DNA of 13,330 bases from a virus. Taxonomy: Duplodnaviria > Heunggongvirae > Uroviricota > Caudoviricetes. The DNA lies in IMG/VR virus record IMGVR_UViG_2547132278_000017, positions 1 through 13,330 of that record; one strand, written 5' to 3'. Below are positions 1 through 13,330 of the stretch, in pieces. The position numbers and the translations under genes were made by a program. Position 1 is the first letter of the stretch. Each line of letters opens with the position of its first letter. The notes beneath the pieces are model-generated. The model saw only the letters and a list, made by a program, of their open reading frames with translations. It had not been told where the DNA came from and did not search any database.

Positions 1-483
1 TCAATATTCCAGACAGACTCGCGGTTCATTTAAGCATCCATGCCCGCCCTGAACTCCGGGCACACCGTAAGTAAAATCAGCCACCCACAGCTGGTCAGGT
101 CGTTCTGCCACGAACTGACGGTTTACGCGGTCGCCTGCGGCAACGGCTTTCCGGCTGATGGTCGTACGGACCTTTTTACCCCGGAGAACACCGGCAAGTC
201 CCATAACCGCCATGAGACGTGCCACAGTGCATCTGGCCACTCTGATACCTTCCCGTAACAACTGACGCCAGACTTTACGCACACCGTATACCTTGTGATT
301 TTCATCGTATACGCGCTGTATCTCTTTCTTCAGCCAGTCATCGCGCTGCGCACGGGCACTGCGTTTATCCGGATGATGTCGCTGTTGCTGACAGTGGTAA
401 TACGTTGACGGGGCAATATGCAGTTCGCTGCATAGCGGTCCGACCCCGTACTGCTCACGCAGCTTATCCAGCAGTGGCATCAT
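1..483 (-). pseudogene. IS629 transposase OrfB, truncated to 160 aa (DDE catalytic domain lost)
   Basis: The ORF reads ...RPDQLWVADFTY, the start of the DDE domain in IS3-family OrfB, then diverges into GVPGVQGGHGCLNEPRVCLEY and stops at 1-3. IS3-family OrfB is normally about 290-300 aa, so the second Asp and the Glu of the catalytic triad are absent. Confidence 0.7.
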
Positions 484-806
484 TTTTTCCAGAGGCGGTC
501 GAACTCCGCCTTCGCAAAATAAGCGGAAGCCTGGCGAAGGATATCGTTACTGCGGCGCAGTTCACGATTTTCACGTTCCAGCTCTTTCAGACGCTGACGT
601 TCAGCGGTGGTGAGCCCTCCATCACCGCCCCCGGTATCCCGCTCATGCTGGCGAACCCAGACACGCAGAGTCTCCGGCGTACAGCCAATCTTTGGAGCAA
701 TGGAACAAATTGTCGCCCATTGTGAGTCATATTCGCTCTGACTTTCCAGAACCATACGGACTGCCCGTTGACGGACTTCGGGGGAAAAACGAGTATTTTT
801 AGTCAT
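480..806 (-). CDS. IS629 transposase OrfA (108 aa, helix-turn-helix plus leucine-zipper region)
   Basis: The 108-aa [26 protein letters not shown]...[29 protein letters not shown] matches my recollection of IS629/IS1203 OrfA. It lies about 55 bp inside the IS terminus, and its stop overlaps the next ORF. Confidence 0.9.
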
Positions 807-860
807 CCTGTTTACCTCTTTCTCAGGAAGTTTAGTCTCCAGGATTCCCGGGGCGGTTCA

Positions 861-1418
861 GCTCAACCCCATATAGTTGTAACACTTGAGCCAAACCCTT
901 GGGCCGCTTTTTACTTTGATATTAACATTGCTAATACAGGGAACGCACCTGCCTATAATGTTGAGGTTGTGTTTGATCCTCCACTAGTAAATGCGGAGCA
1001 TAGAGAAAAAAGTGAGATTCCGTTTAGTAAGGTAAGCGTGTTAAAAAATGGGCAATCACTTACCAGCAATCTCTGTAAGTATGAACAAATCAAAGATCAA
1101 ATTTATAATATTAATATAAGCTGGGCAAGCAAACCTAAATCAAACGATAGAGAAACAAATGAATATGTGTATGACATGGCGACATTTGAAGGAATAAGTT
1201 ATCTAGGAGCGAGAAGCCCATTGACGCAAATTGCAGAACAAATTAAAGGTATAAGAGAGGATTGGAAACCTATTGCACAAGGAGCTAAAAAAGTAAAAGC
1301 AGACGTATATACTTCAAGCGATAGAAACGAAGAACGCACGTATCTGCAAGAGCAACACGATTTGGCAATAAAAAGGAGAGATGAGAAAAGAGAAAAAAGA
1401 TTAGAGTCTGGTGAATAA
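861..1418 (+). pseudogene. 3' fragment (185 codons) of an unknown AT-rich gene interrupted by the IS629 insertion
   Basis: The reading frame is open from the first base after the IS terminus (861) to the stop at 1418. There is no in-frame ATG with a ribosome-binding site until very late (MATFEG...), so the N-terminal part must lie beyond the IS. The C-terminus is lysine/glutamate-rich. No recognisable motif. Confidence 0.5.
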
Positions 1419-1466
1419 TTTTAAAGGGAGTGGGTAACTAACCCACTCGTAACTATAAACCTGTAA

Positions 1467-2291
1467 TTAATCACTTATTTTTGACAACAGATAATTACTG
1501 AACGCACTGCAAGTGACTAACATAAATTTAGCTTCAGCTAAGGTAGGATTTACATCTTCTTCTGTTAGCGCATGACGTATTCCACCCTGATCACTTGTAT
1601 AACCATAGAGCTGACTAAAAGCGCCTTTCATTGCAGAGTGTATATATCCTTTTTCCTCTATAGCTTTAAGACAAGCCCCCAAGGTTCCTTTATCATTGCC
1701 CGTGATTTTCCTGCATAAAGATTCAATTGCAGAGATAGACTCTTTAATCGAGTTTCTGTAGTCTGGCTGCTCTCTATCCGTCATTAGTTGTAACGCCCTT
1801 TCGAAATGGCTACGCGATGAATCAGTGCCATTATCAACTGCGTTCTGAACACTTTCAATTTCGTTATCATTTGAAATAGGAGTAATACAACCATTTATTA
1901 TGGTATAACCAACGCCATGCTTTTTAAAGATGGAATTGAGATGCTTCGATAGATTAATATATGAATTAGTTCTCTCAATGATGAACTCAATTAAATCATA
2001 TACCAAATACCATGCTTCCCCATATATATAATCTCGGATAGCAGTCAGCAACGTCTTATCACTTTTGTATCCACTTTCATAACGAGGAATATTATCCGCA
2101 GGTTGATTTAGATAATATATCCACACAGACTGCGCACATTTTGTTGCTGTAGCAGTTTGACGATTGTTAGTCCAAAGGAAAAGATATAAGCAATTCCACA
2201 ATGCCATGCGTGTATCAGAATTAAGATCATTCAGCTGGACATGCTCTCTAACGTCAACATGACCATACCTCACAGAAAATGGCTTTATCAT
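1467..2291 (-). CDS. Hypothetical 274-aa protein; possible AbiJ/HEPN-like abortive-infection-type C-terminal domain (tentative)
   Basis: Long ORF in an AT-rich segment with a Shine-Dalgarno-like AGGGGA 4-6 nt before the ATG at 2291. The C-terminal region ...SIKESISAIESLCRKITG...SAMKGAFSQLYGYTSDQGGIRHALTEEDV...AKFMLVTCSAFSNYL resembles, from memory only, HEPN-type domains of AbiJ-like proteins. Not verified by any search. Confidence 0.6.
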   Translation of the reverse strand: MIKPFSVRYGHVDVREHVQLNDLNSDTRMALWNCLYLFLWTNNRQTATATKCAQSVWIYYLNQPADNIPRYESGYKSDKTLLTAIRDYIYGEAWYLVYDLIEFIIERTNSYINLSKHLNSIFKKHGVGYTIINGCITPISNDNEIESVQNAVDNGTDSSRSHFERALQLMTDREQPDYRNSIKESISAIESLCRKITGNDKGTLGACLKAIEEKGYIHSAMKGAFSQLYGYTSDQGGIRHALTEEDVNPTLAEAKFMLVTCSAFSNYLLSKISD

Positions 2292-2825
2292 TCTTCCCCT
2301 GCCTGATTGTTATGTTCGTTTAAATTATGCAGTCTAAGTTTGATACAATCATATATTAAGCAATAGAATCCATAAAGCCCCGTTGGTGGTAAGACAACAA
2401 GCGGAGCCTCTTGCGACTTCATCAGGGTTATGTCAGTTAGTGAGGCTTATCAGGATGACCATGTACCCAAGGGGAGCGAGGCCGAACCGCTGGCAGAGCT
2501 TGCATATGGTCTGCAAGTACCGTGACCACCATAAACCTGTTTATCCCCTGCGGCGTCTCGCGACGGCGACAGAATGGGGGCATCGGGCTAAAATGCGCTG
2601 CACTAAAAGTTTTGGGATTGTTTAGAGACGGTGGCTACGTCATAGCTTTCAAGTTGAGTCAGTACGTGTTTGACGCTTGGAACGACACGCCGCTATGAGT
2701 TAACATCCCAATTACCACTATCAACCACAGCGGCTTTTTCAAGGGACATAACAGAGCATTTCTTACAGGCAAAAGAGACAGATTTAATCGTCTAACTAAC
2801 TGTATTGTAAGGAATTTAGTAACTT

Positions 2826-2848
2826 GGTGCGAAGGCCGGACTCAAACA
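2826..2848 (-). other. attR-like site: degenerate copy of a tRNA 3' end (T-arm/acceptor/CCA) marking the satellite's left boundary
   Basis: Minus-strand sequence TGTTTGAGTCCGGCCTTCGCACC(A) closely matches the 3' end of tRNA-Leu (leuX-type ...GGTTCGAGTCCGGCCTTCGGCACCA) with one substitution and one missing G. P4-type integrases integrate into tRNA 3' ends, and the int gene is at the opposite end in the compatible orientation. Confidence 0.55.
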
Positions 2849-3044
2849 TCAAAATAAGTTAATGATAAAAAACAAATAATAAAACACAACAATGAAATAT
2901 GCCCCCTTTTGTGCCCCCACTGTTTTTCTGACCAATCTATTTTCAGCCCATCAATAAATCGGAAAGTTAAATCATTTTTAATCAGTAAGTTTGGATCCGT
3001 AGCTCGGATCCAAACCAGTGCATCTTTTATCCACATAAAAAATT

Positions 3045-3340
3045 TTTTTTCGAAAGAACTGTTCACACTGTTCACCTTTCTGTTTTCTCCTTTTATTTCA
3101 GAGTGATAGGTGGTGAATAATGGGTGAAGGGTGAACATTCGATTCTTCACCTCCGGCATTCTGCCGATGTGACTCATACCGGTGATTAATCCTCCGCACT
3201 GAAATCACTCAGGAAGAAAAAAGTTTTTTTTGATTTGATTGTTCACACTGTTCACCTTTCGTTTTTCTCTTTTAATTTCAGTGTGATAACGGGTGAATAT
3301 ACGGTGAAGGGTGAACAGTGGATTGTTCACCTTCGGGGGA
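3045..3340. repeat. crr-like cis replication region: two direct repeats of about 115-120 bp (spaced 180 bp) each carrying several TGTTCACC-type iterons
   Basis: ctgttcacactgttcacctttc...tttcag(a/t)gtgata...ggtgaa...ggtgaagggtgaaca...ttcacc occurs at 3059-3160 and again at 3239-3340. The octamer TGTTCACC/GGTGAACA is the type I iteron bound by P4 alpha protein. The position immediately downstream of alpha matches P4 crr. Confidence 0.7.
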
Positions 3341-3350
3341 TATCTGGATA

Positions 3351-3374
3351 AAAAAAGACCGGCAGATGCCGGTC
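3351..3374 (-). terminator. Rho-independent terminator of the alpha operon
   Basis: On the minus strand, directly after the alpha stop: stem GACCGGC, loop AUCU, stem GCCGGUC, followed by six U then AU. Confidence 0.6.
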
Positions 3375-3381
3375 AGGTGGG

Positions 3382-5715
3382 TCAGGCTGTTGTAGGGTCG
3401 TCACATTTTGGCAGCCAGTCGCCGTAGCTTTCCTCTTTCAGCGTCAGGTTGGTCTGTATCCCCTGTTTGGTATGGCGCTTCTCGTAATTCAGCCCGTATT
3501 CCTTCAGCATCACCGGCAGCCCCAGCCCGAACATTTTCAGACTGAGTACATTCCGGTAGCCGTTTGCCTCCATGTAGGCCAGATAGGCGTGATAGAGGTA
3601 TTTACGGTAATTACGCGGGATGATACTGGCGTTCCCCATATACATGCCGCTGGTCTGCGGCAGGGTTTCCAGATAGCCGATAAAATCAAACGTCGGGTCG
3701 GCATCCCGTTTGATGTTCAGCGCCTCGTCTGAGTTCTGCTGGGACTGAAGCAGTGACCGGGCGAGCATCGGGTCGCTGAACTTCTGCATCAGGTGACGCA
3801 CGATGACCGCCAGCTCGCGGGTGATTTTGTCCTTAAGCTGCGGGTCGCGCTCCTGCGGGGCTATCTGTTCCGGGAAGTGAATAATCACCCGCCGGCGTGA
3901 CACGCCGCCGCTGCGGTCGGTGAAGCGCATCGGGTTATTGTTCACGGCCAGAATCACCGCCGGGATGTGCGTGGAGTACGCATCCCGGTATTTCGGGTCA
4001 ACGGACACCGCATCGCCGCCGGTGATGGCCTTGAGTCCGGCTCCGTCGCCGCTCCATTTTTCCTGGTCCGGCAGGCGTATCAGTGAGAAGCCAGTTAACG
4101 CGGCACGTTCACGCGGGGATTCCAGCGTCTCAATGGTGGCCGACGTGGCGTTATCCTCCCCGGCCAGCAGGGTGGCTATTTCGGCCATGATACTTTTGCC
4201 GCTGCCGCCGGGACCGGTCACCTCCAGAAAGAGCTGCCAGTCATAGCGGTTTGCCAGCACCATAAACAGTGCGGCCAGAATCACGTCGCGTTTTTCCGCA
4301 CGGCCACCGGCGGCACGGTCAAGCCAGCGCCAGAACGCGGGGGCGTGGGTTTCCAGCGTTTCCCCTTCCACCGGCGGGGTGAAATCCACATCGCACAGGG
4401 TGCGCATCCAGTGTGACGGACTGTGCGGGTGGAACGTGCCGTTCTGCGTGTCGAGCACGCCGTTACGAAAGCCAATCAGGCGGCGGGAGGGGGCTTCCTG
4501 CTGCGGAATAATCAGCTTCAGGGTGTCCACCACGGAGGCCACCTTCCCGGAGGAGAACGGCGCGCGCAGACGCTGAAACAGCCCGGCCACATCCCGGGCA
4601 AAGTCCTGTGGCGGCAGCACCTTCCAGACACCATTTTCATAGCGGGACAGAAGCTGGCCGTTGGCATCGACCGCGAGCGCCTCGCCGTAATGCTCATAGA
4701 TACGCATGGCCTTTTCGCTGGTACTCATGGCGGAAAACTCCGCTTCGCTCATGGTGTCGAACGGGCTTTCAGCCGGGGGCCGGATGGCATCATAAATGGC
4801 CTTACGGGTGGCTTCCCCGCCGTACTGCGTGAAGGCATCATTCCAGTCACCGAAGACCGGCGGCAGGGCAACAACACCTTCACACGCATCTGCGGCTGCG
4901 GCGGCTTTTTTCTGGCCGTCACCGCTGAGGTCACGGTCAGCAGCAAGGACAATCTGACAGGCCGGATGCTTCTGCCGGGCAAGGCTGGCCAGAGAAAGGA
5001 GATTCACGGAAGAAAGCGCCACCATCACCGTTTCACCGGTCAGGTGATGCACGGTAAGTGCGGTCGCGTATCCCTCCGCTATCCACAGACGTTTTCCGGC
5101 CTGATTCTGTCCTTCAAGGATGTGACAGGTGCCCCTGACCTGCCCGCCTTTCAGGGTGCGCTTACGGCCGTCAGCACTGATTAACTGAAGGTTAACCAGT
5201 TCGCCGCTGTCGTCATACAGTGGCACCACAAGGTCACCGGCGCGCCAGCTCACGCCACCGGCTCTGTGTGTGCCGGTCAGCATCCGGCATTCCCGGCCGG
5301 GAAAGCCCTTGCGGGTCAGGTAGGCGTTACCGGTTCCGGGACGGGTTTTCGCCATCAGGGTTTGTGCCAGTGCGGCGGCGTTCTTCCGGGCAGCGTCTGT
5401 TTCAGCACCGGCGGCAGCCGTCACTGCCGGGTCAGCCGGGGGCAGGCTGCCGGTCACGGCAGCCACCTTTGCGGCCGCATCGGACGGGGAAACACCAAAC
5501 ACCTTTTCAACCAGTTTCAGGCCGTCACCGGCACCGCACTGATTGCAGTACCAGGTGCCGCGCCCCTCCCTGTCATCAAAACGGAAGCGGTCACTCCCGC
5601 CACAGACCGGACAGGGCTGATGACGGTTCTTCAGCACCTGAATCCCCAGCGCCGGGAGAATACGCGGCCAGTGGCCGAGTGCATGGCTGACGGTGGCGGT
5701 TACGTTCATTTTCAT
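3382..5715 (-). CDS. alpha: P4-type alpha protein: bifunctional DNA primase / SF3 helicase / origin-binding protein (777 aa)
   Basis: N-terminal zinc-binding motif CPVCGG...YCNQCG, Walker A GPGGSGKS in the helicase region, AAGGAGA ribosome-binding site 8 nt before the ATG. The length of 777 aa equals P4 alpha. Iterons recognised by alpha are present at crr and ori. Confidence 0.95.
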   Translation of the reverse strand: MKMNVTATVSHALGHWPRILPALGIQVLKNRHQPCPVCGGSDRFRFDDREGRGTWYCNQCGAGDGLKLVEKVFGVSPSDAAAKVAAVTGSLPPADPAVTAAAGAETDAARKNAAALAQTLMAKTRPGTGNAYLTRKGFPGRECRMLTGTHRAGGVSWRAGDLVVPLYDDSGELVNLQLISADGRKRTLKGGQVRGTCHILEGQNQAGKRLWIAEGYATALTVHHLTGETVMVALSSVNLLSLASLARQKHPACQIVLAADRDLSGDGQKKAAAAADACEGVVALPPVFGDWNDAFTQYGGEATRKAIYDAIRPPAESPFDTMSEAEFSAMSTSEKAMRIYEHYGEALAVDANGQLLSRYENGVWKVLPPQDFARDVAGLFQRLRAPFSSGKVASVVDTLKLIIPQQEAPSRRLIGFRNGVLDTQNGTFHPHSPSHWMRTLCDVDFTPPVEGETLETHAPAFWRWLDRAAGGRAEKRDVILAALFMVLANRYDWQLFLEVTGPGGSGKSIMAEIATLLAGEDNATSATIETLESPRERAALTGFSLIRLPDQEKWSGDGAGLKAITGGDAVSVDPKYRDAYSTHIPAVILAVNNNPMRFTDRSGGVSRRRVIIHFPEQIAPQERDPQLKDKITRELAVIVRHLMQKFSDPMLARSLLQSQQNSDEALNIKRDADPTFDFIGYLETLPQTSGMYMGNASIIPRNYRKYLYHAYLAYMEANGYRNVLSLKMFGLGLPVMLKEYGLNYEKRHTKQGIQTNLTLKEESYGDWLPKCDDPTTA

Positions 5716-5729
5716 GGTGTTGTTCTCCT

Positions 5730-6050
5730 TCAGTGCAGTACCGGCGCTTTTATGTGACGGGCACAGAGTTCATCCATCACAACCAGCCCGAGAAAGGACA
5801 GCGACGGCGCGGCCTTCAGGGGGCCGGATTCCATTAAATCTTCCAGCAGGGCACAGGCTATCTGACGCCCTTTTTCCTCACCGTGCTGGCGCAGATAAAA
5901 GCCTTCCAGCTCAGCGGCGATGGCCGCCTCCAGTGACTCAAGGGTGAGATGCGGGTAGCGGTGCTGACGTTCGCACACGGTCAGCCAGGCACAGGCGACA
6001 GCGCGACGGTAAAGGGCAGCGCGTAAGACGGGCGGTAAGGGTGTTTTCAT
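5730..6050 (-). CDS. cnr: Cnr-like copy-number regulator (106 aa), immediately upstream of alpha
   Basis: Position and size match the P4 cnr gene preceding alpha in the left operon. Assignment rests on synteny and length, not on a motif. Confidence 0.7.
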
Positions 6051-6185
6051 TTGTTTTCCTCCCTGTGACAGATGACTGCATTCCGTGCCGGTTGCATTAA
6101 CTGATAAGGCATATCTGCGTCTCCTGAAGACGTGCGTATCCCTGCGCGAATACGCACATTTAATTTTTCGGGTGTCGTTTTTTAA

Positions 6186-6641
6186 TTACAGATAATTGCG
6201 GTAACTGTTATCCGGGGTGGTTTCCGGGTCAGGCTCCGTGCGGGGAATTTCCCGCCATTCCCGCGCCACCGGTGCTGCCCGGCTGACCGGAACAGTGTCC
6301 TGCGGGTAAATATCCAGATATTTTTCCCGCCATTTCTGTAATTCCGGGTCTCCGGCCATTTCTTTCAGTACCGCATGCCGGTTTACGGGGCTGCGTTTAA
6401 ACAGGTCAGGACGGTCACAGGTAAATTCCCGCAGAAAACGCCCCAGCGGGATGTCTGTGGTGCGTCCGTCAGCGAGGATACGCACAAGGATACTGAATTT
6501 ACGGCGGTACGGGTTCCAGACAATGTCCGGGCAGCGGTACGGCATTTCCCACGGAATACCGTCTTCCAGAATGCCGACCACGGCCACATCGGGAAAACCG
6601 GCAGAACGGTAAATCTCACCGGGCTGGGGAAAATCAAACAT
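6186..6641 (-). CDS. P4 orf151-like protein (151 aa), function unknown
   Basis: 151 codons in the position of P4 orf151 between eps and cnr. The start overlaps the stop of the upstream gene by 8 nt (operon coupling). Confidence 0.8.
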   Translation of the reverse strand: MFDFPQPGEIYRSAGFPDVAVVGILEDGIPWEMPYRCPDIVWNPYRRKFSILVRILADGRTTDIPLGRFLREFTCDRPDLFKRSPVNRHAVLKEMAGDPELQKWREKYLDIYPQDTVPVSRAAPVAREWREIPRTEPDPETTPDNSYRNYL

Positions 6642-6921
6642 GCGTCCTGTCTCCCCGGTCTTTCTGCTGGGCGAGAAAATCGCGGCACAGGCCTTTGGCT
6701 TTCAGCTCATTCAGCACAAAATCAATATCTTCATTCAGGTAGCTGAAAATATGCGGAATGTAGAGCTGATGCAGGCCGGAGAGTTCACGGTGAATCAAAT
6801 CACCCCCAACAAACCGGGATACGGCGCTGGCGCGGTTGAGCTTATGGTAAGCCTCAATGCTGAGGTGTTCACGGGCGTCATGACGTGCTGAGACGGTCTG
6901 AGGGGCTTTTTTATTACGCAC
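6634..6921 (-). CDS. eps: Epsilon-like protein (95 aa, GTG start), predicted helper-prophage derepressor
   Basis: The tracked 177-aa ORF has no ribosome-binding site at its ATG. An internal GTG at 6921 is preceded by GGAGGT with a 5-nt spacer and gives a 95-aa product in the P4 eps position (upstream of orf151, downstream of the immunity region). Start choice is an inference. Confidence 0.6.
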
Positions 6922-7189
6922 GGGACACCTCCACCACCGGCAGACGGGCAGCAAGGGAGAGCACATAGTCTCGGACAAGGGAACGGCGGGCACTGCGTTC
7001 ATCACCGGCGACGGTGCGAAGCATACAGATACGGGGATGACGGTCTGCACGACGGACAGCCGCAAACACAAAGACAAATTCAGGGTGTGAGGGGGTAAGG
7101 GTTGTAGCCATAAGGCAGCCTCCTTCGAGTAGCAAATAACTGCTATCGCCGGAGTTTCCACGCTCAATGGCGATAGCCCAGACGGGGGT

Positions 7190-7265
7190 GGAAATACCGG
7201 CCTCGAAGAATACCGGCCAGCCCGGAGGCTGCCCCGCCTGAGCTACCATTGACTCTGCGGCATAA
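7190..7265 (-). ncRNA. cI: Candidate CI-like immunity RNA region (seqB) with complementary seqA-like (about 7385-7400) and seqC-like (7113-7133) targets
   Basis: The plus-strand segment 7113-7133 (aggcagcctccttcgagtagc) is complementary to two blocks within 7199-7233 (ggcctcgaag...ggaggctgcc), split by about 15 nt. A second copy of the ccttcgag core sits at 7391-7399, just downstream of the putative early promoter. The arrangement mirrors P4 seqA/seqB/seqC, but boundaries are not defined. Confidence 0.35.
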
Positions 7266-7444
7266 TGAGCGGACGCGGGCAGGATGCACGGAATGCCATC
7301 TGCACGACTGACCACACACCACACCATAATCTGGCGCTCTGTGGCGTTGATTGCGACACAAAAAAAGACGCATGGCGCGTCATATGTCGCCTTCGAGTTA
7401 CACGGGTTTCCACGCCCGGCTGCCGATTTTGCGACAGCGGAAAA

Positions 7445-7474
7445 ACTATATCCGCAAATGCCGGAAAAAGGCAA
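7445..7474 (-). promoter_or_regulatory. Candidate P_LE-like early promoter (-35 TTGCCT, 18-nt spacer, -10 TATAGT) for the leftward immunity/replication operon
   Basis: Minus-strand hexamers at 7474-7469 and 7450-7445, between the vis stop and the seqA-like element. Confidence 0.35.
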
Positions 7475-7509
7475 GCCAGAAAAAGGGAGTTTTTGCAGAG
7501 CGGGCATCA

Positions 7510-7776
7510 TCATGCGTCGTACCCCCGTTTGCGTCCGGCAATGCGCCCGGCCATCCATGCGGTGACTTCAGAGTGCAGCCAGGCCACATTTTTACCGCCA
7601 AGACTCACCTGTGGCGGAAATTCCCCCTTACGGATGAGTTCATAGATGGTCGAGCGTGACAGGCCGCACAGGTGCATCACTTCCGGCAGACGTAAAAAAC
7701 GCTCCTGCGTGATGTCCGGCAGCGGCATCAGTGGCGTCACAGGGGCGGGAGACGGGGAAGAAAAAACAGCTTGCAT
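7510..7776 (-). CDS. vis: AlpA/Vis-family transcriptional regulator and excision factor (88 aa; alternative internal start would give 72 aa)
   Basis: AlpA-family helix-turn-helix signature ...[47 protein letters not shown].... GAGGT ribosome-binding site 6 nt before the ATG at 7776. Position upstream of the early operon matches P4 vis. Confidence 0.8.
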
Positions 7777-7878
7777 CGGGCTACCTCGTTAATGTCCATA
7801 CAGCACCGGATAAGTCCGTCCGGCTTCGGGTAGCGCTTTATTTTGTGAATATTTTCAGCAGACGCAACAGGGGGAATT

Positions 7879-7896
7879 TGTTCCGGCAGCCTTACA
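7879..7896 (-). promoter_or_regulatory. TGT-N12-ACA dyad, candidate Delta/Ogr-responsive late promoter (P_LL-like) driving vis leftward
   Basis: tgt tccggcagcctt aca. Centred about 55 bp upstream of a plausible leftward transcription start, which would itself be about 55 nt before the vis start. The pattern alone is expected by chance a few times in 13 kb, so position is the main support. Confidence 0.3.
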
Positions 7897-8054
7897 ATGG
7901 CTGTGTGTTTTTTATCCATCCGGACTGGAAGGGTCTCAAAGGGTTCTGAAGGACCTGGAATTTTTCATAGTGAAATGCAAATTGTTTTTTCTTATTTATT
8001 TCAGTGAATTAATAAAAATAAACAGTAATAAACAGCATAAAAAGCCCATCAACG

Positions 8055-8160
8055 GGTGAACAGTGGTGAACAGACGGTGAACAGTCATTACTGCGATTGT
8101 TCACCCTTTAACTTACTGTATTACTTATCTTTTTTCTTAAGGTGAACAGAGGTGAACAGT
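8055..8160. repeat. ori-like cluster of six type I iterons (GGTGAACAG/TGTTCACC) with an AT-rich spacer
   Basis: Iterons at 8056-8063, 8065-8073, 8076-8084 (direct), 8098-8105 (inverted), 8141-8149 and 8151-8159 (direct). The AT-rich stretch 8107-8140 lies between them, and an AT-rich region sits upstream (7960-8050). Six iterons about 4.8 kb from crr fits what I recall of P4 ori. Confidence 0.65.
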
Positions 8161-8237
8161 AAAATATAAAAAAACAAACAGTAAGCCGGTTTTTCCTGCG
8201 ACCTTTTCCTGGCTTGCCGGTCTGAGGATGAGTCTCC

Positions 8238-8255
8238 TGTGTCAGGGCTGGCACA
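8238..8255 (+). promoter_or_regulatory. TGT-N12-ACA dyad, candidate Delta/Ogr-activated late promoter (Psid-like) for sid-delta-psu
   Basis: tgt gtcagggctggc aca, centred about 55 bp upstream of a predicted start near 8300, followed by a GAGGAG ribosome-binding site and the sid ATG at 8328. Confidence 0.4.
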
Positions 8256-8327
8256 TCTGCAATGCGTCGTGTTGTTGTCCGGTGTACGTCACAATTTTCT
8301 CAACCTGAAGTGACGAGGAGCCGGAAA

Positions 8328-9062
8328 ATGTCTGACAACACCATCCCTGAATATCTGCAACCCGCGCTGGCACAACTGGAAAAGGCCAGAGCCGCCCACC
8401 TTGAGAACGCCCGCCTGATGGATGAGACCGTCACGGCCATTGAACGGGCAGAGCAGGAAAAAAATGCGCTGGCGCAGGCCGACGGAAACGACGCTGACGA
8501 CTGGCGCACGGCCTTTCGTGCAGCCGGTGGTGTCCTGAGCGACGAGCTGAAACAGCGCCACATTGAGCGCGTGGCACGCCGGGAGCTGGTACAGGAATAT
8601 GACAATCTGGCCGTGGTGCTGAATTTCGAACGTGAACGCCTGAAAGGGGCGTGTGACAGCACGGCCACCGCCTACCGGAAGGCACATCATCACCTGCTGA
8701 GTCTGTATGCAGAGCATGAGCTGGAACACGCCCTGAATGAAACCTGTGAGGCGCTTGTCCGGGCAATGCATCTGAGCATTCTGGTACAGGAAAATCCGCT
8801 CGCCAACACCACCGGGCATCAGGGCTACGTCGCACCCGATAAAGCTGTCATGCAGCAGGTGAAATCATCGCTGGAACAGAAAATAAAACAGATGCAAATC
8901 AGCCTCACCGGCGAGCCGGTTCTCCGGCTGACCGGACTGTCAGCGGCAACACTCCCACACATGGATTATGAGGTGGCAGGCACACCGGCACAGCGCAAGG
9001 TGTGGCAGGACAAAATAGACCAGCAGGGAGCAGTGCTTAAGGCCAGAGGACTGCTGTCATGA
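8328..9062 (+). CDS. sid: Sid, external scaffold / capsid size determination protein (244 aa)
   Basis: Start MSDNTIPEY with GAGGAG 7 nt upstream. 244 aa equals P4 Sid. Helical, Ala/Glu/Leu-rich composition. First gene of the rightward late operon, stop overlapping the delta start (ATGA). Confidence 0.9.
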   Translation: MSDNTIPEYLQPALAQLEKARAAHLENARLMDETVTAIERAEQEKNALAQADGNDADDWRTAFRAAGGVLSDELKQRHIERVARRELVQEYDNLAVVLNFERERLKGACDSTATAYRKAHHHLLSLYAEHELEHALNETCEALVRAMHLSILVQENPLANTTGHQGYVAPDKAVMQQVKSSLEQKIKQMQISLTGEPVLRLTGLSAATLPHMDYEVAGTPAQRKVWQDKIDQQGAVLKARGLLS

Positions 9063-9559
9063 TTTACTGCCCGTCGTGTGGACATGTTGCTCACACCCGT
9101 CGCGCACATTTCATGGACGATGGCACCAAGATAATGATTGCACAGTGCCGGAATATTTATTGCTCTGCGACATTTGAAGCGAGTGAAAGCTTTTTCTCTG
9201 ACTGTAAAGATTCAGGAATGGAATACATTTCAGGCAAACAGAGATACCGCGATTCACTGACGTCAGCCTCCGGTAGCATGAAACGCCCGAAAAGAATGCT
9301 TGTTACCGGATATTGTTGTCGGAGATGTAAAGGCCTTGCACTGTCAAGAACATCGCGGCGTCTGTCTCAGGAAGTCACCGAGCGTTTTTATGTGTGCACG
9401 GATCCGGGCTGTGGTCTGGTGTTTAAAACGCTTCAGACCATCAACCGTTTCATTGTCCGCCCGGTCACGCCGGACGAACTGGCAGAACGCCTGCATGAAA
9501 AACAGGAACTGCCGCCAGTACGCTTAAAAACACAATCATATTCGCTGCGTCTGGAATGA
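9059..9559 (+). CDS. delta: Delta, late transcription activator with two tandem Ogr-type zinc fingers (166 aa)
   Basis: Two Cys4 modules (CPSCG...C...YC and CRRCKG...C...C). 166 aa equals P4 Delta. Confidence 0.9.
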   Translation: MIYCPSCGHVAHTRRAHFMDDGTKIMIAQCRNIYCSATFEASESFFSDCKDSGMEYISGKQRYRDSLTSASGSMKRPKRMLVTGYCCRRCKGLALSRTSRRLSQEVTERFYVCTDPGCGLVFKTLQTINRFIVRPVTPDELAERLHEKQELPPVRLKTQSYSLRLE

Positions 9560-9632
9560 GGGCTGCCGGTTAACACCGGCCGTCGCCGCACACCGTATTT
9601 TTATTCTTCAGCATGATGAGAAAGAGATAACG

Positions 9633-10205
9633 ATGGAAAGCACAGCCTTACAGCAGGCCTTTGACACCTGTCAGAATAACAAAGCAGCATGGCTGCAACG
9701 CAAAAATGAGCTGGCAGCGGCCGAACAGGAATATCTGCGGCTTCTGTCAGGAGAAGGCAGAAATGTCAGCCGCCTGGACGAATTACGCAATATTATCGAA
9801 GTCAGAAAATGGCAGGTGAATCAGGCCGCCGGTCGTTATATTCGTTCGCATGAAGCCGTTCAGCACATCAGCATCCGCGACCGGCTGAATGATTTTATGC
9901 AGCAGCACGGCACAGTACTGGCGGCCGCACTGGCACCGGAGCTGATGGGCTACAGTGAGCTGACGGCCATTGCCCGAAACTGTGCCATACAGCGTGCCAC
10001 AGATGCCCTGCGTGAAGCCCTTCTGTCCTGGCTTGCGAAGGGTGAAAAAATTAATTATTCCGCACAGGATAGCGACATTTTAACGACCATCGGATTCAGG
10101 CCTGACGTGGCTTCGGTGGATGACAGCCGTGAAAAATTCACCCCTGCGCAGAACATGATTTTTTCGCGTAAAAGTGCGCAACTGGCATCACGTCAGTCAG
10201 TGTAA
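9633..10205 (+). CDS. psu: Psu, polarity suppression / capsid decoration protein (190 aa)
   Basis: 190 aa equals P4 Psu. Last gene of the late operon, followed by a terminator-like hairpin and the cos site. Confidence 0.9.
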   Translation: MESTALQQAFDTCQNNKAAWLQRKNELAAAEQEYLRLLSGEGRNVSRLDELRNIIEVRKWQVNQAAGRYIRSHEAVQHISIRDRLNDFMQQHGTVLAAALAPELMGYSELTAIARNCAIQRATDALREALLSWLAKGEKINYSAQDSDILTTIGFRPDVASVDDSREKFTPAQNMIFSRKSAQLASRQSV

Positions 10206-10241
10206 AATTCCCCGAAAATCCGCCCGTTTTTACTGAAAAAA

Positions 10242-10270
10242 GCCATGCATCGATAAGGTGCATGGCTTTG
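10242..10270 (+). terminator. Candidate terminator after psu
   Basis: Hairpin GCCATGCA / TGCATGGC (10242-10266) followed by TTTG...TTTT. The U-tract is interrupted, so confidence is modest. Confidence 0.4.
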
Positions 10271-10369
10271 CATGCGTTTTCCTGCCTCATTTTCTGCAAA
10301 CCGCGCCATTCCCGGCGCGGTCTGAGCGTGTCAGTGCAACTGCATTAAAACCGCCCCGCAAAGCGGGCG

Positions 10370-10388
10370 GGCGAGGCGGGGAAAGCAC
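10370..10388. other. cos site: 19-nt cohesive-end sequence GGCGAGGCGGGGAAAGCAC of P2/P4-type phages
   Basis: Exact match to the cohesive-end sequence as I recall it, embedded in a GC-rich dyad (ccgccccgcaaagcgggcgg) between psu and the cargo operon, as in P4. Confidence 0.8.
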
Positions 10389-10633
10389 TGCGCGCCAATA
10401 GCAATGATGCACATTTATTTTCGAACCCTGAGTACATCATAGATGTATGCAGATAAACGATTATGGATCAGTGGCAAATGCATAGAGTAGGTTTGATGCT
10501 CTTACGAGGCATGCAGGTGAACAATACCAACACATAATATATTGAACCTACCCAAAAAAATGAGTAGGCATACTTGTTAAAAGTATATTTCTGATCAATG
10601 ATATAAAAATAAGCACTTTAGGCGAAAGAGAAC

Positions 10634-11575
10634 ATGAAGTTAAATTATTTTACTTACACAATAACCGACAATAGAAATCAAAAAGTTTATTTTGATAACA
10701 TTTCAGATATTATCAAAAATTTTTGTTTGCATAGAAAAAAATCTCTTTTTGAGAAAAACAAAGGGTTAAAAAGACTGTACCTAGCCATGCCCACCTCATT
10801 TGATGGCATATACTATTTGACCACGCCAGCAATTACTACAGCATTTAAAGCTGTAGATAGAGCAACTGGTGTAGTAAATGATTTGGCTTCTGTACTTGGT
10901 AAAGATAGTCTAGAGAAAGTTACTTACTTTTTTATTGACCCTAAACATTCAATAATCGGAGTAACCGAGGGTAAAGGTAATGCTGACATTGATGATTTGC
11001 AATTCTTCATTAACGAAATAATTAATCAAGATTTTCAATCACATATTTATACCTTCGAGCTTTGCACATTAAAAATAGAAATCAAATCTACATCGGCTAC
11101 AAAATTCAAACTCATCACTGAAGCACGAGTGAAGTTAAATAATGATTCTGTTGGGGATGTAATAAATGGATTGTTTGGCAAGGCCCCATCAGACAATATG
11201 GAAGTGCAAATTATCGTAAAAAGAAAAAATAGAAAAGAGAATGTGAAAGATTATATACAACCATTACTCTCAAGTTTATCTTCATCTGAAGATAAAGAGT
11301 ATGCAGAAATTTATTTCAGAGCCAAGGCAGATGAATTTCAATCAAATGTAAAAGAGTTTATTTTAGATAAGAATCAGAATATTTTTGATATAATAAACCC
11401 TCATCTCAAAGTAAAGATTGAAGATCAAATACTTGAAAAAAGATACAAAAACCAAGTTGTGATAAGTGAATTGAGTACATACGCACAAAATTTTACTGGA
11501 CGCATACATTCAGGTATTATTGATCCAGTGTGGAATGATCTAAAAACAGAAAGTTACCACAAAGCAAAAAGTTGA
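10634..11575 (+). CDS. Cargo protein A: 313-aa soluble protein of unknown function, AT-rich, candidate sensor or enzymatic component of a two-gene defence system
   Basis: Uninterrupted 313-codon ORF in an AT-rich island (roughly 25-30% GC by eye against about 55-60% for the backbone). No P-loop, HxH or other motif I can recognise. Its stop at 11573-11575 abuts the ribosome-binding site and start of the next gene. Confidence 0.8.
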   Translation: MKLNYFTYTITDNRNQKVYFDNISDIIKNFCLHRKKSLFEKNKGLKRLYLAMPTSFDGIYYLTTPAITTAFKAVDRATGVVNDLASVLGKDSLEKVTYFFIDPKHSIIGVTEGKGNADIDDLQFFINEIINQDFQSHIYTFELCTLKIEIKSTSATKFKLITEARVKLNNDSVGDVINGLFGKAPSDNMEVQIIVKRKNRKENVKDYIQPLLSSLSSSEDKEYAEIYFRAKADEFQSNVKEFILDKNQNIFDIINPHLKVKIEDQILEKRYKNQVVISELSTYAQNFTGRIHSGIIDPVWNDLKTESYHKAKS

Positions 11576-11583
11576 GGATGACA

Positions 11584-12039
11584 ATGCTTACTAACCAAGC
11601 AATAGTAAAAATTAATATAGCCACATGGGGTGTAAGCATTCTTACTGCTGTTATTTTTACTCTCATTGCGGTGTTTTGTGAAAACCAATACATAGAGATA
11701 GAACCTGAAGGTATAATTGGCATCGCTACACTATTAGGTACTTTTAGTTTCACAATGACAGGATTCATTGCTGCAATTGGTGCTTATATCATATCAGTGT
11801 CTGATAAAACTTCTTTTCTAAAGTGGCGACAGCAAGGATATATAAATATCTTCTACCATCTATATGGGCAGAGCATTGTTTTTTTATTGGTCACATTTTT
11901 ATTATGCATGGTGGCTATCATAATGCCATTTAATGTTGCATTGACAATTTTGAAATGTGGTTTATACATTCTCATCCTTAATATTATTCACATCATATTA
12001 ATAACTGTAATTACACTCGGTCAAATGCAGAAAAAATAA
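11584..12039 (+). CDS. Cargo protein B: 151-aa integral membrane protein with four predicted transmembrane helices, candidate membrane effector
   Basis: ATG at 11584 preceded by GAGGA with a 5-nt spacer (the tracked ORF starts at an unlikely TTG at 11572). Hydrophobic stretches at about residues 12-31, 44-72, 97-116 and 120-145, with a basic C-terminus (QMQKK). Translationally coupled to cargo A. Confidence 0.75.
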   Translation: MLTNQAIVKINIATWGVSILTAVIFTLIAVFCENQYIEIEPEGIIGIATLLGTFSFTMTGFIAAIGAYIISVSDKTSFLKWRQQGYINIFYHLYGQSIVFLLVTFLLCMVAIIMPFNVALTILKCGLYILILNIIHIILITVITLGQMQKK

Positions 12040-12061
12040 GTTAGCTTTTGACCGGTATTTC

Positions 12062-13330
12062 TTACTTTTTAACTTTAAGCATATTTGCAAACTCATATGG
12101 AGTGACTTGAGAATGCTTACTTATATCTAAATAATCCGCCCACCATTGAACCATAAGACGCCGCTCATCTAGATGTTCAGAAGTATGAATATAAGCTGCA
12201 CGAACATTATTGCGCTCTGAATGGCTCAGTTGGCGTTCTATAGCATCATCACTCCATAATCCTGACTCACCCAACGCACCACGTGCCATCGTCCTAAACC
12301 CATGCCCGCAGACTTCGGTTTTTGTGTCATATCCCATCGCACGCAATGCGCTATTCACTGTGTTTTCACTCATAACCTTAGTGGCGTCATGATCCCCCGG
12401 GAAAAGCACCTCTTTATCACCACTAATCTGCTTTAACTGGTCTAACAAATTCATCGCCTGACGACTCAGCGGAACGATATGCTCCTCTTTCATCTTCATA
12501 CCACGATACGAATAACGCACTCCCTTAATTTCTTTTCGTTTTGCAGGTATGCGCCATAGAGATTTATCGAAGTCGAATTCATCCCAACGCGCAAAACGCA
12601 ACTCACTGGAACGCACAAAAGTTAGTAAGGAAAGCTCAACCGCGATCCGTGTCATTACACGGCCACGATATGCAGCAAGACGTGCAAGAAACTCAGGGAA
12701 CCGGCTAGAGGGTAAAGCTGGGTAATGTCGCGCTTTGGTTGTCGATAGAGCACCAGCCATATCACTGGCTGGATTTGAGTCGATGTAATCGTTCTGTACT
12801 GCATAACGCATGATAGCCGTGACACGCTGCTGAAGTCGCTGCGCGACGTCATGCTTACCACTTGCATCAACTTTTTTAATCGGGGCTAACAGGTGGCTAG
12901 TCTTGAGCTGACGAATGTCGGACGAACCAATGTGAGGGAAGATATAAAGCTCAAGATAGCGAAGAACGCGCGAGCGATGGTCTTCACTCCAGCGTTTGTT
13001 ACTGGCGTGCCATTCACGAGCAATGGTTTCGAATGTATATGCCCCCGAATTCTCGGCCTGAGCTTCTTTCTGTTCGGCTTTTGGGTCAATGCCCTGCACT
13101 AGCAGTTTTTTAGCTTCATCGCGCTTTGCTCTTGCCTGAGCAAGCGTCACAGTAGGCCAAACACCAAAAGCGAGGCGATCCTCTTTTTTGTCTGAGGGGC
13201 GTCTGTATTTCATGCGCCAGTATTTTGACCCCTTAGGCGAAATCTCGAGATACAAACCGCCGCCGTCGGCCATTTTGTAGGTTTTTTCTTTTGGCTTTGC
13301 GGTCTCGACCTGTCTGGCTGTGAGCTTCAT
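12062..13330 (-). CDS. int: P4-type tyrosine integrase (422 aa); start codon at the window edge
   Basis: N-terminal arm-type domain (MKLTARQVETAKPKEKTYKMADGGGLYLEISPKGSKYWRMKYR...), C-terminal catalytic residues (HGFRTMARG, ...VRAAYIHT). The ATG occupies 13328-13330, so the true start could lie further upstream outside the window. Convergent with the cargo operon, separated by 22 bp. Confidence 0.88.
   Translation of the reverse strand: MKLTARQVETAKPKEKTYKMADGGGLYLEISPKGSKYWRMKYRRPSDKKEDRLAFGVWPTVTLAQARAKRDEAKKLLVQGIDPKAEQKEAQAENSGAYTFETIAREWHASNKRWSEDHRSRVLRYLELYIFPHIGSSDIRQLKTSHLLAPIKKVDASGKHDVAQRLQQRVTAIMRYAVQNDYIDSNPASDMAGALSTTKARHYPALPSSRFPEFLARLAAYRGRVMTRIAVELSLLTFVRSSELRFARWDEFDFDKSLWRIPAKRKEIKGVRYSYRGMKMKEEHIVPLSRQAMNLLDQLKQISGDKEVLFPGDHDATKVMSENTVNSALRAMGYDTKTEVCGHGFRTMARGALGESGLWSDDAIERQLSHSERNNVRAAYIHTSEHLDERRLMVQWWADYLDISKHSQVTPYEFANMLKVKK

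Follow-up and report, generated by a model that had tools for sequence, protein, structure and literature searches.

P4-like elements are common in Escherichia coli, where they are found in a large fraction of genomes, and E. coli C is the classical host of P4 itself. As a class, P4-like satellites are defined by seven core components, as described for SatelliteFinder by de Sousa and Rocha (PMC10085698). A hotspot for defence genes, located between psu and int and next to cos, has been published for P4 (PMC9122126). The DNA considered here is a stretch of 13,330 nucleotides from a virus of the class Caudoviricetes (IMG/VR record IMGVR_UViG_2547132278_000017, positions 1 to 13,330), referred to as the window; coordinates without another label are those of the window. 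With high confidence, positions 2825-13330 represent an integrated and seemingly functional P4-like satellite of Type A, which is inserted at leuX, in the 3' end of this tRNA-Leu gene, on an E. coli-type chromosome and carries a two-gene cassette resembling RexAB of phage lambda.

Relationship to phage P4

P4 (NC_001609) is the top match for the entire window in a megablast search of phage records. By BLASTN, window 2825-10369 is collinear with P4 4078-11624 at 98.1% identity (7548 columns, 4 gap openings), window 10370-10398 corresponds to P4 1-29, which is the left cos end, and window 12123-13330 corresponds to P4 2707-3914, the int region, at 89.5%. In the P4 annotation used for the comparison (NC_001609 / X51522), the attP core spans positions 4078-4097 and the cos cut falls at 11624/1; the gene order of the window is therefore that of P4 opened at attP, the prophage permutation, which starts on the alpha side of att, passes cos and ends with int. 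The segment P4 30-2706, which holds gop, beta and cII, is missing, and 1.7 kb of unrelated DNA is found instead. Differences from P4 cluster at 7100-7500 and 7900-8100. Copies at least 98% identical to the 10.5-kb element are present in many complete E. coli genomes, and the identity in three complete E. coli genomes ranges from 98.3 to 98.9%.

A sequence-only reading of the window had proposed the gene order and orientation of P4, which is borne out by the 7.5 kb of collinear alignment at 98.1%. The protein lengths it listed (alpha 777, cnr 106, orf151 151, eps 95, sid 244, delta 166, psu 190) are all exact, with 98-100% amino acid identity to P4. Its description of the sites holds in part: the cos end, the cis replication region (crr) and the type-1 iterons are those of P4, but the type-2 repeats of ori differ and the att core retains 19 of 20 nt. 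The alignment to the P4 reference that it had called for upholds the P4 element type, and no other element type.

All seven core components are intact and in P4 order (7/7), namely int, psu, delta, sid, alpA/vis, the eps/ash region, and alpha. A P2-type cos adjoins the accessory hotspot, with a cohesive end and 80 nt identical to P4, and all genes are open. The element is assigned to Type A because each of the seven components was tested and found.

The likeness to P4 extends to a common gene order, equal lengths of alpha, cnr, orf151, eps, vis, sid, delta, and psu (98-100% amino acid identity), and a shared crr, type-1 iterons, alpha terminator, cos cohesive end, and alpha-side attP arm. In contrast, the unit length is 11.62 kb in P4 and ∼10.67 kb in the window element (92% of P4), and the slot taken by gop-beta-cII in P4 holds a 1.7-kb cassette of 32% GC. 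Int has 439 residues in P4 and 422 in the window element, with 89% identity and an unlike C-terminal end. Compensatory changes distinguish the immunity sites seqA, seqB, and seqC from those of P4, and the ori type-2 repeats are also unlike. The retronphage phiR73 and other heteroimmune P4 relatives follow the same scheme, in which the P4 backbone is combined with other cargo and with immunity sites unlike those of P4. PhiR73 occupies selC and carries a retron, whereas the window element occupies leuX and carries RexAB-like cargo.

Probable integration in the leuX tRNA-Leu gene

The left boundary, the integrase gene, and the sites at which the integrase presumably binds are as follows.

2825-2843 (no strand assigned): distal att core TGGTGCGAAGGCCGGACTC, 19 nt, a copy of the leuX 3' end minus one C; left boundary of the element
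2897-2920, - strand: two attP arm-type repeats of 12 nt with 0 mismatches to P4 4151-4174; presumed Int arm-binding sites according to the P4 annotation
12062-13330, - strand: int, P4-family tyrosine integrase, 422 aa, complete, with Arm-DNA-bind_3, Phage_int_M, and Phage_integrase domains

The sequence-only reading had placed the left boundary at 2826. The att core that it recognised is real, but alignment with P4 shows that the core begins at 2825. The core is flanked on the left by the attB sequence of E. coli C and on the right by the attP-arm sequence of P4. Int is identical to P4 Int in 391 of 439 alignment columns, and its start codon forms the last three bases of the window, in which ARAGORN detects no tRNA. 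The same reading had also expected a tRNA and a second core past 13330; no sequence of the window extends past the int start codon, but the expectation is borne out in three relatives, in which the core and tRNA-Leu lie 164 nt past int. In these complete E. coli genomes with a near-identical prophage (3/3), tRNA-Leu starts 164 nt past the int start codon and is followed by ahr, yjgR, and lptG, the neighbourhood of leuX. Integration in a tRNA gene with direct att repeats is represented by a distal core of 19/20 nt in the window and by a proximal core and tRNA in the relatives.

One of the relatives, E. coli strain 504237 (NZ_CP025862), matches the window exactly in its Int, RexA-like, and RexB-like proteins, and its prophage is 98.9% identical at the DNA level over 2825-13330. 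The two elements differ in Eta, which is unlike at 17 of 199 residues (the immunity region), and in the left neighbour, which is another integrase island in 504237 and the native leuX flank in the window. A four-way alignment of the distal att of the window, attB of E. coli C, the tRNA-proximal att of 504237, and attP of P4 gives the classic attL/attB/attR/attP pattern. Unoccupied sites were sought with a 400-nt query that joins the left flank of the window, up to the core, to the body of leuX, with a coverage of at least 80% required for a match to be counted. The empty site is found in 219 complete E. coli genomes, E. coli C included; among the matches listed, the empty sites span the full query length as 401 nt at 99.8% identity, which corresponds to an intact 20-nt core.

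The window is the whole element minus ∼180 nt at the right end; the absent part includes the promoter and arm sites of int as well as the att core next to the tRNA. Counted in window positions, the element should end on the right near 13513. The missing end would consist of a 163-nt int-side arm, followed by TGGTGCCGAAGGCCGGACTC leading into an intact tRNA-Leu (CAA).

The last 61 nt of int (window 12062-12122) lie outside the P4 homology, and the C-terminal tail of Int is shorter than, and unlike, that of P4 Int. On the right, the exchanged hotspot segment therefore extends into the int gene. The catalytic region of Int is encoded upstream of this homology breakpoint and aligns with P4 Int.

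The 19-nt distal core

All three E. coli prophages examined have the 19-nt form of the core, as do 21 of 22 contigs from IMG/VR and metagenomes, where the contigs counted are those with the core plus the P4 alpha-side arm; the single exception, contig L023, has the 20-nt form. At least five unrelated classes of sequence are found to the left of the 19-nt copies, so the variant belongs to the satellite side of the junction and is not tied to a single chromosomal context. As the 19-nt form is the common state, the missing C is not counted as decay. A scan of IMG/VR for the circular attP form, in which the int-side arm, the core, and the alpha-side arm are joined, gives 0 matches, and the core with the alpha-side arm gives 0 matches among GTDB species representatives. 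The same left junction occurs in two genomes only, both independent and complete, which is too few for a count of intact and deleted cores among lysogens with the same flank.

A tentative interpretation, the simplest available but one that we consider rather doubtful, is that the 19-nt core is a lineage feature of the satellite's own attP and not a product of decay. If it is true, strand exchange by P4-family Int would fall among the six terminal bases of leuX (TGGTGC; the GCACCA end of the tRNA) and not on the T-loop side of the 20-bp core. The crossover would lie to the left of the missing base because excision would otherwise leave leuX with a shortened acceptor stem.

Replication, left-operon, and packaging functions

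The alpha side of the element holds the replication genes, the left operon, and the two cis-acting replication regions.

3037-3336, + strand: crr, with 120-bp direct repeats at 3037-3156 and 3217-3336 and ten type-1 iterons
3350-3374, - strand: terminator of the alpha operon (t-alpha), identical to P4 4604-4628
3382-5715, - strand: alpha, primase-helicase and origin-binding replication protein, 777 aa; 771/777 identical to P4
5730-6050, - strand: cnr, copy-number regulator, 106 aa; 106/106 identical to P4
6186-6641, - strand: orf151, 151 aa; 151/151 identical to P4
6634-6921, - strand: eps (epsilon), helper-prophage derepression protein, 95 aa, GTG start; 95/95 identical to P4
6914-7513, - strand: eta, 199 aa, open with an ATG start; Phage_ASH and Icd-like domains; the reading frame crosses the CI RNA region
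6914-7111, - strand: kil, 65 aa, nested in eta; open with an ATG start and a GGAGG site upstream
7510-7776, - strand: vis / orf88, AlpA-family regulator and excisionase, 88 aa; 87/88 identical to P4; Phage_AlpA, E = 7e-21
7832-8554, + strand: ori region, with six type-1 iterons at 8055-8158 that equal those of P4 and diverged type-2 repeats at 7922-7951

Both crr repeats have 0 mismatches to P4 4291-4410 and 4471-4590, and the internal repeat is also evident from BLASTN. The type-1 iterons are identical to P4 in 16 of 16 cases (10 in crr, 6 in ori). In the type-2 region, window 7922-7961 reads as approximately four 10-nt units, GGACTGGAAG GGTCTCAAAG GGTTCTGAAG GACCTGGAAT, compared with CCACTTAAAG TCATTTAAAG CCACTTAAAG in P4. 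An open reading frame (ORF) of 111 aa at 2842-3177 on the - strand is identical to P4p05 and overlaps the crr repeats. RefSeq genomes disagree on its label, 'integrase' or 'hypothetical protein'; it has no match in Pfam or PADLOC and is probably not a real gene.

The capsid genes sid, delta, and psu are contiguous, all on the + strand, and are followed by cos.

8328-9062, + strand: sid, capsid size-determination scaffold, 244 aa; 241/244 identical to P4
9059-9559, + strand: delta, Ogr/Delta-type late-gene activator, 166 aa; 163/166 identical to P4
9633-10205, + strand: psu, capsid decoration protein and Rho inhibitor, 190 aa; 189/190 identical to P4
10290-10398, + strand: cos packaging site, with a 19-nt cohesive end at 10370-10388

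The cohesive end GGCGAGGCGGGGAAAGCAC (19 nt) is identical to that of P4, as are 80 of 80 nt to the left of the cut. To the right of cos, P4 homology stops near 10398.

Immunity region

The mechanism of immunity through the CI RNA is reportedly established P4 biology from the Ghisotti and Deho laboratories. Its RNA components are all recognisable in the window.

7114-7170, - strand: seqC, second target of seqB, from complementarity to seqB
7166-7253, - strand: CI immunity RNA (Rfam C4, RF01695), 76.7 bits against a gathering score of 45; seqB at 7182-7218
7361-7438, - strand: left-operon leader (Rfam isrK, RF01394), 71.3 bits, above the gathering score; seqA target at 7384-7420

Relative to P4, seqA, seqB, and seqC change together in the patch at 7100-7500. 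The predicted energies of the cognate duplexes are -33.3 and -36.9 kcal/mol in the window and -36.9 and -40.3 kcal/mol in P4; the predicted cross duplexes between window and P4 range from -22.5 to -24.3 kcal/mol. The window element is probably heteroimmune to P4, because its seqA, seqB, and seqC have diverged from those of P4 in a matched fashion. Among the loci fetched for comparison (L001, L003, L005, L007, L008, L011, L017, L020, and L022), two variable blocks occur in six allele combinations, and the block in seqA/seqC has its exact reverse complement in seqB. At the sequence level, this arrangement points to a combinatorial set of immunity specificities among P4-like elements.

The RexAB-like cassette

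The DNA that replaces gop, beta, and cII contains two genes.

10634-11575, + strand: RexA-family protein, 313 aa; Pfam RexA PF15969, 43.1 bits against a cut-off of 25
11584-12039, + strand: RexB-like membrane protein, 151 aa; PADLOC RexB, E = 5.5e-6 (a weak match); approximately four hydrophobic helices

The RexA-like protein covers positions 1-229 of the 235 in the PF15969 profile and has ∼80 extra C-terminal residues past the match; it is a distant member of the RexA family. The RexB-like gene begins 8 nt after the RexA-like stop codon, and the hydropathy profile of its product resembles that of lambda RexB. The GC content is 31.9% in the cargo DNA and 55% in the backbone. Neither protein has a family in NCBIfam, and no PADLOC model matches the RexA-like protein. 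In the cargo region, a scan for promoter and terminator consensus sequences does not exceed the shuffled expectation.

The cassette resembles lambda RexA/RexB in being a two-gene operon in which a soluble RexA-family protein of ∼300 aa comes first. Lambda RexB has 144 aa and the RexB-like protein 151 aa, with four hydrophobic segments in both. The carrier is a temperate mobile element in each case, but the linkage to a repressor gene seen in lambda is not found in the window cargo. The two also differ in that the final paper on the cassette gives no robust defence phenotype for it. By analogy with lambda, the RexAB-like pair may act as a sensor and a membrane effector that abort infection by competing phages.

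The proteins are identical to WP_000775192.1 (RexA-like) and WP_000957222.1 (RexB-like) at locus L002. Table S1 of Rousset et al. 2022 lists WP_000775192 and WP_000957222 as 'RexA + hypothetical', and Table S2B describes a cloned 'RexAB-like' cassette, pFR86, from Escherichia marmotae E1118 (PMC9122126). In the stretch compared, ∼145 nt of insert downstream of cos, pFR86 and the window are unlike at one base. It appears that pFR86 contains the same cassette as the window and that this cassette was cloned and tested by Rousset et al. 2022. According to the preprint, the cassette is moderately protective against P1vir. It is present in 20 of 5,426 complete E. coli genomes and is always chromosomal.

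The cassette lies between cos and int, in agreement with the sequence-only reading, which had assigned it to the element and not to the chromosome proper. Apart from the two cargo genes, nothing beyond the P4 backbone is found between the att core and int. Since the cargo occupies a satellite hotspot, it would be horizontally mobile with a P2-type helper.

Proposed life cycle

We infer from P4 biology that mobilisation of the element would be helper-dependent. During lysogeny, the CI RNA would maintain the prophage state through pairing of seqB with seqA and seqC in the left-operon leader, leading to premature termination. Int, together with Vis for excision, would recombine the two att copies at leuX, and Alpha would replicate the resulting circle from ori and crr. 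Eps would derepress a resident P2-type helper, Delta would switch on the helper late genes, and Sid and Psu would direct assembly of the helper capsid at the small size. The terminase of the helper would then cut the P2-type cos and package the genome of ∼10.67 kb.

Alternative explanations

A number of observations weigh against a functional satellite with RexAB-like cargo. The proximal att core and the tRNA lie outside the window and are known from relatives alone, and the distal core is without one C, such that the two att copies are not identical. Each of the three ori type-2 repeats (7922-7951) is unlike P4 at 4-6 of 10 positions, with the 10-nt rhythm kept, and a helper phage is beyond the reach of a 13-kb window. 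For the cargo, RexA and RexB are assigned from profile matches: pairwise BLASTP comparisons with the two lambda proteins are not significant, and a sequence search of the PDB with the RexA-like protein returns no chain at an E-value of 1 or below. The final paper places the cassette among additional tested systems, outside the validated ones (PMC9122126).

The damaged distal core is central to the idea of a grounded, domesticated remnant, in which P4-like genes are kept for the benefit of the host (defence cargo, Psu) and excision has been lost. The 1-nt deletion relative to leuX and to P4 attP would fit such a history, as would the absence of the deleted form from empty sites, which have the intact 20-nt core among the matches listed (of 219), and the 0 matches to the circular attP form in IMG/VR. 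However, every gene is open and 98-100% identical to its counterpart in functional P4, and the replication and packaging sites tested are identical. The occurrence of the 19-nt core beside at least five unrelated left flanks fits an element that is still moving better than one dead copy, and the same cassette is present in E. marmotae. A remnant is therefore considered improbable.

The choice of leuX raises the question of a different island, of the KpLE2 or pathogenicity type, with a P4-family integrase and a few P4-like genes, given that leuX is a common island site and that other integrase-bearing islands are found there in tandem in L002 and L003. Such an island would not account for 7.5 kb of collinearity with P4 at 98.1% from att core to cos, for all seven satellite core genes, or for the presence of only two cargo genes besides P4 genes between the att core and int; the non-satellite island was rejected on the 7.5-kb collinearity and has next to no probability. 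Equally far-fetched is the suggestion that the DNA represents a free form of P4, as phage or plasmid, or a chimera of the assembly. The very high identity to the P4 reference is what such DNA would display, but the permutation of the gene order falls exactly at attP, the native leuX flank of E. coli C lies to the left of the core, and two complete genomes, independent of each other, share this junction. The permuted order and the native attB flank led to the rejection of a free phage or plasmid copy. An integrated P4-like satellite is thus the explanation retained with high confidence.

Left flank and neighbouring elements

The left part of the window precedes the satellite. A 274-aa protein with an AbiJ_NTD4 domain is encoded at 1467-2291 on the - strand and matches the PADLOC candidate defence family PDC-S32 (E = 5.6e-104); an ORF at 846-1418 on the + strand is convergent with it. 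The AbiJ_NTD4-domain gene is just outside the satellite and is a native neighbour of leuX in E. coli C; a candidate defence gene therefore sits directly beside the satellite attachment site. Window 1 to ∼865 is a fragment of an IS3-family insertion sequence that is cut by the window start and presumably resembles IS629. The fragment has an orfA/orfB frameshift signal with an Rfam ALIL pseudoknot (409-525, - strand, 120 bits) and shares 97-100% identity with copies carried by phage 21 and by Stx-converting phages. Other strains show that leuX is serially occupied: in L002 (2561-3811) and L003 (6412-7536), a second integrase-bearing island, intact or decayed, lies in tandem directly to the left of the distal att.

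Implications

The annotation is settled for about 80% of the window. Both the element and its cargo are already known and catalogued, and nothing new about satellites emerges from their identification. For readers concerned with the cargo operon, what matters is that a P4-like satellite carries it, in the defence hotspot already described between psu and int. Two further points hold modest interest for specialists, namely the 19-nt form of the distal att core across the lineage and the matched alleles of the immunity sites. If the core is indeed a lineage feature of the satellite, it would, together with the combinatorial alleles of seqA, seqB, and seqC, provide a finer view of the diversification of integration and immunity in P4-like satellites.

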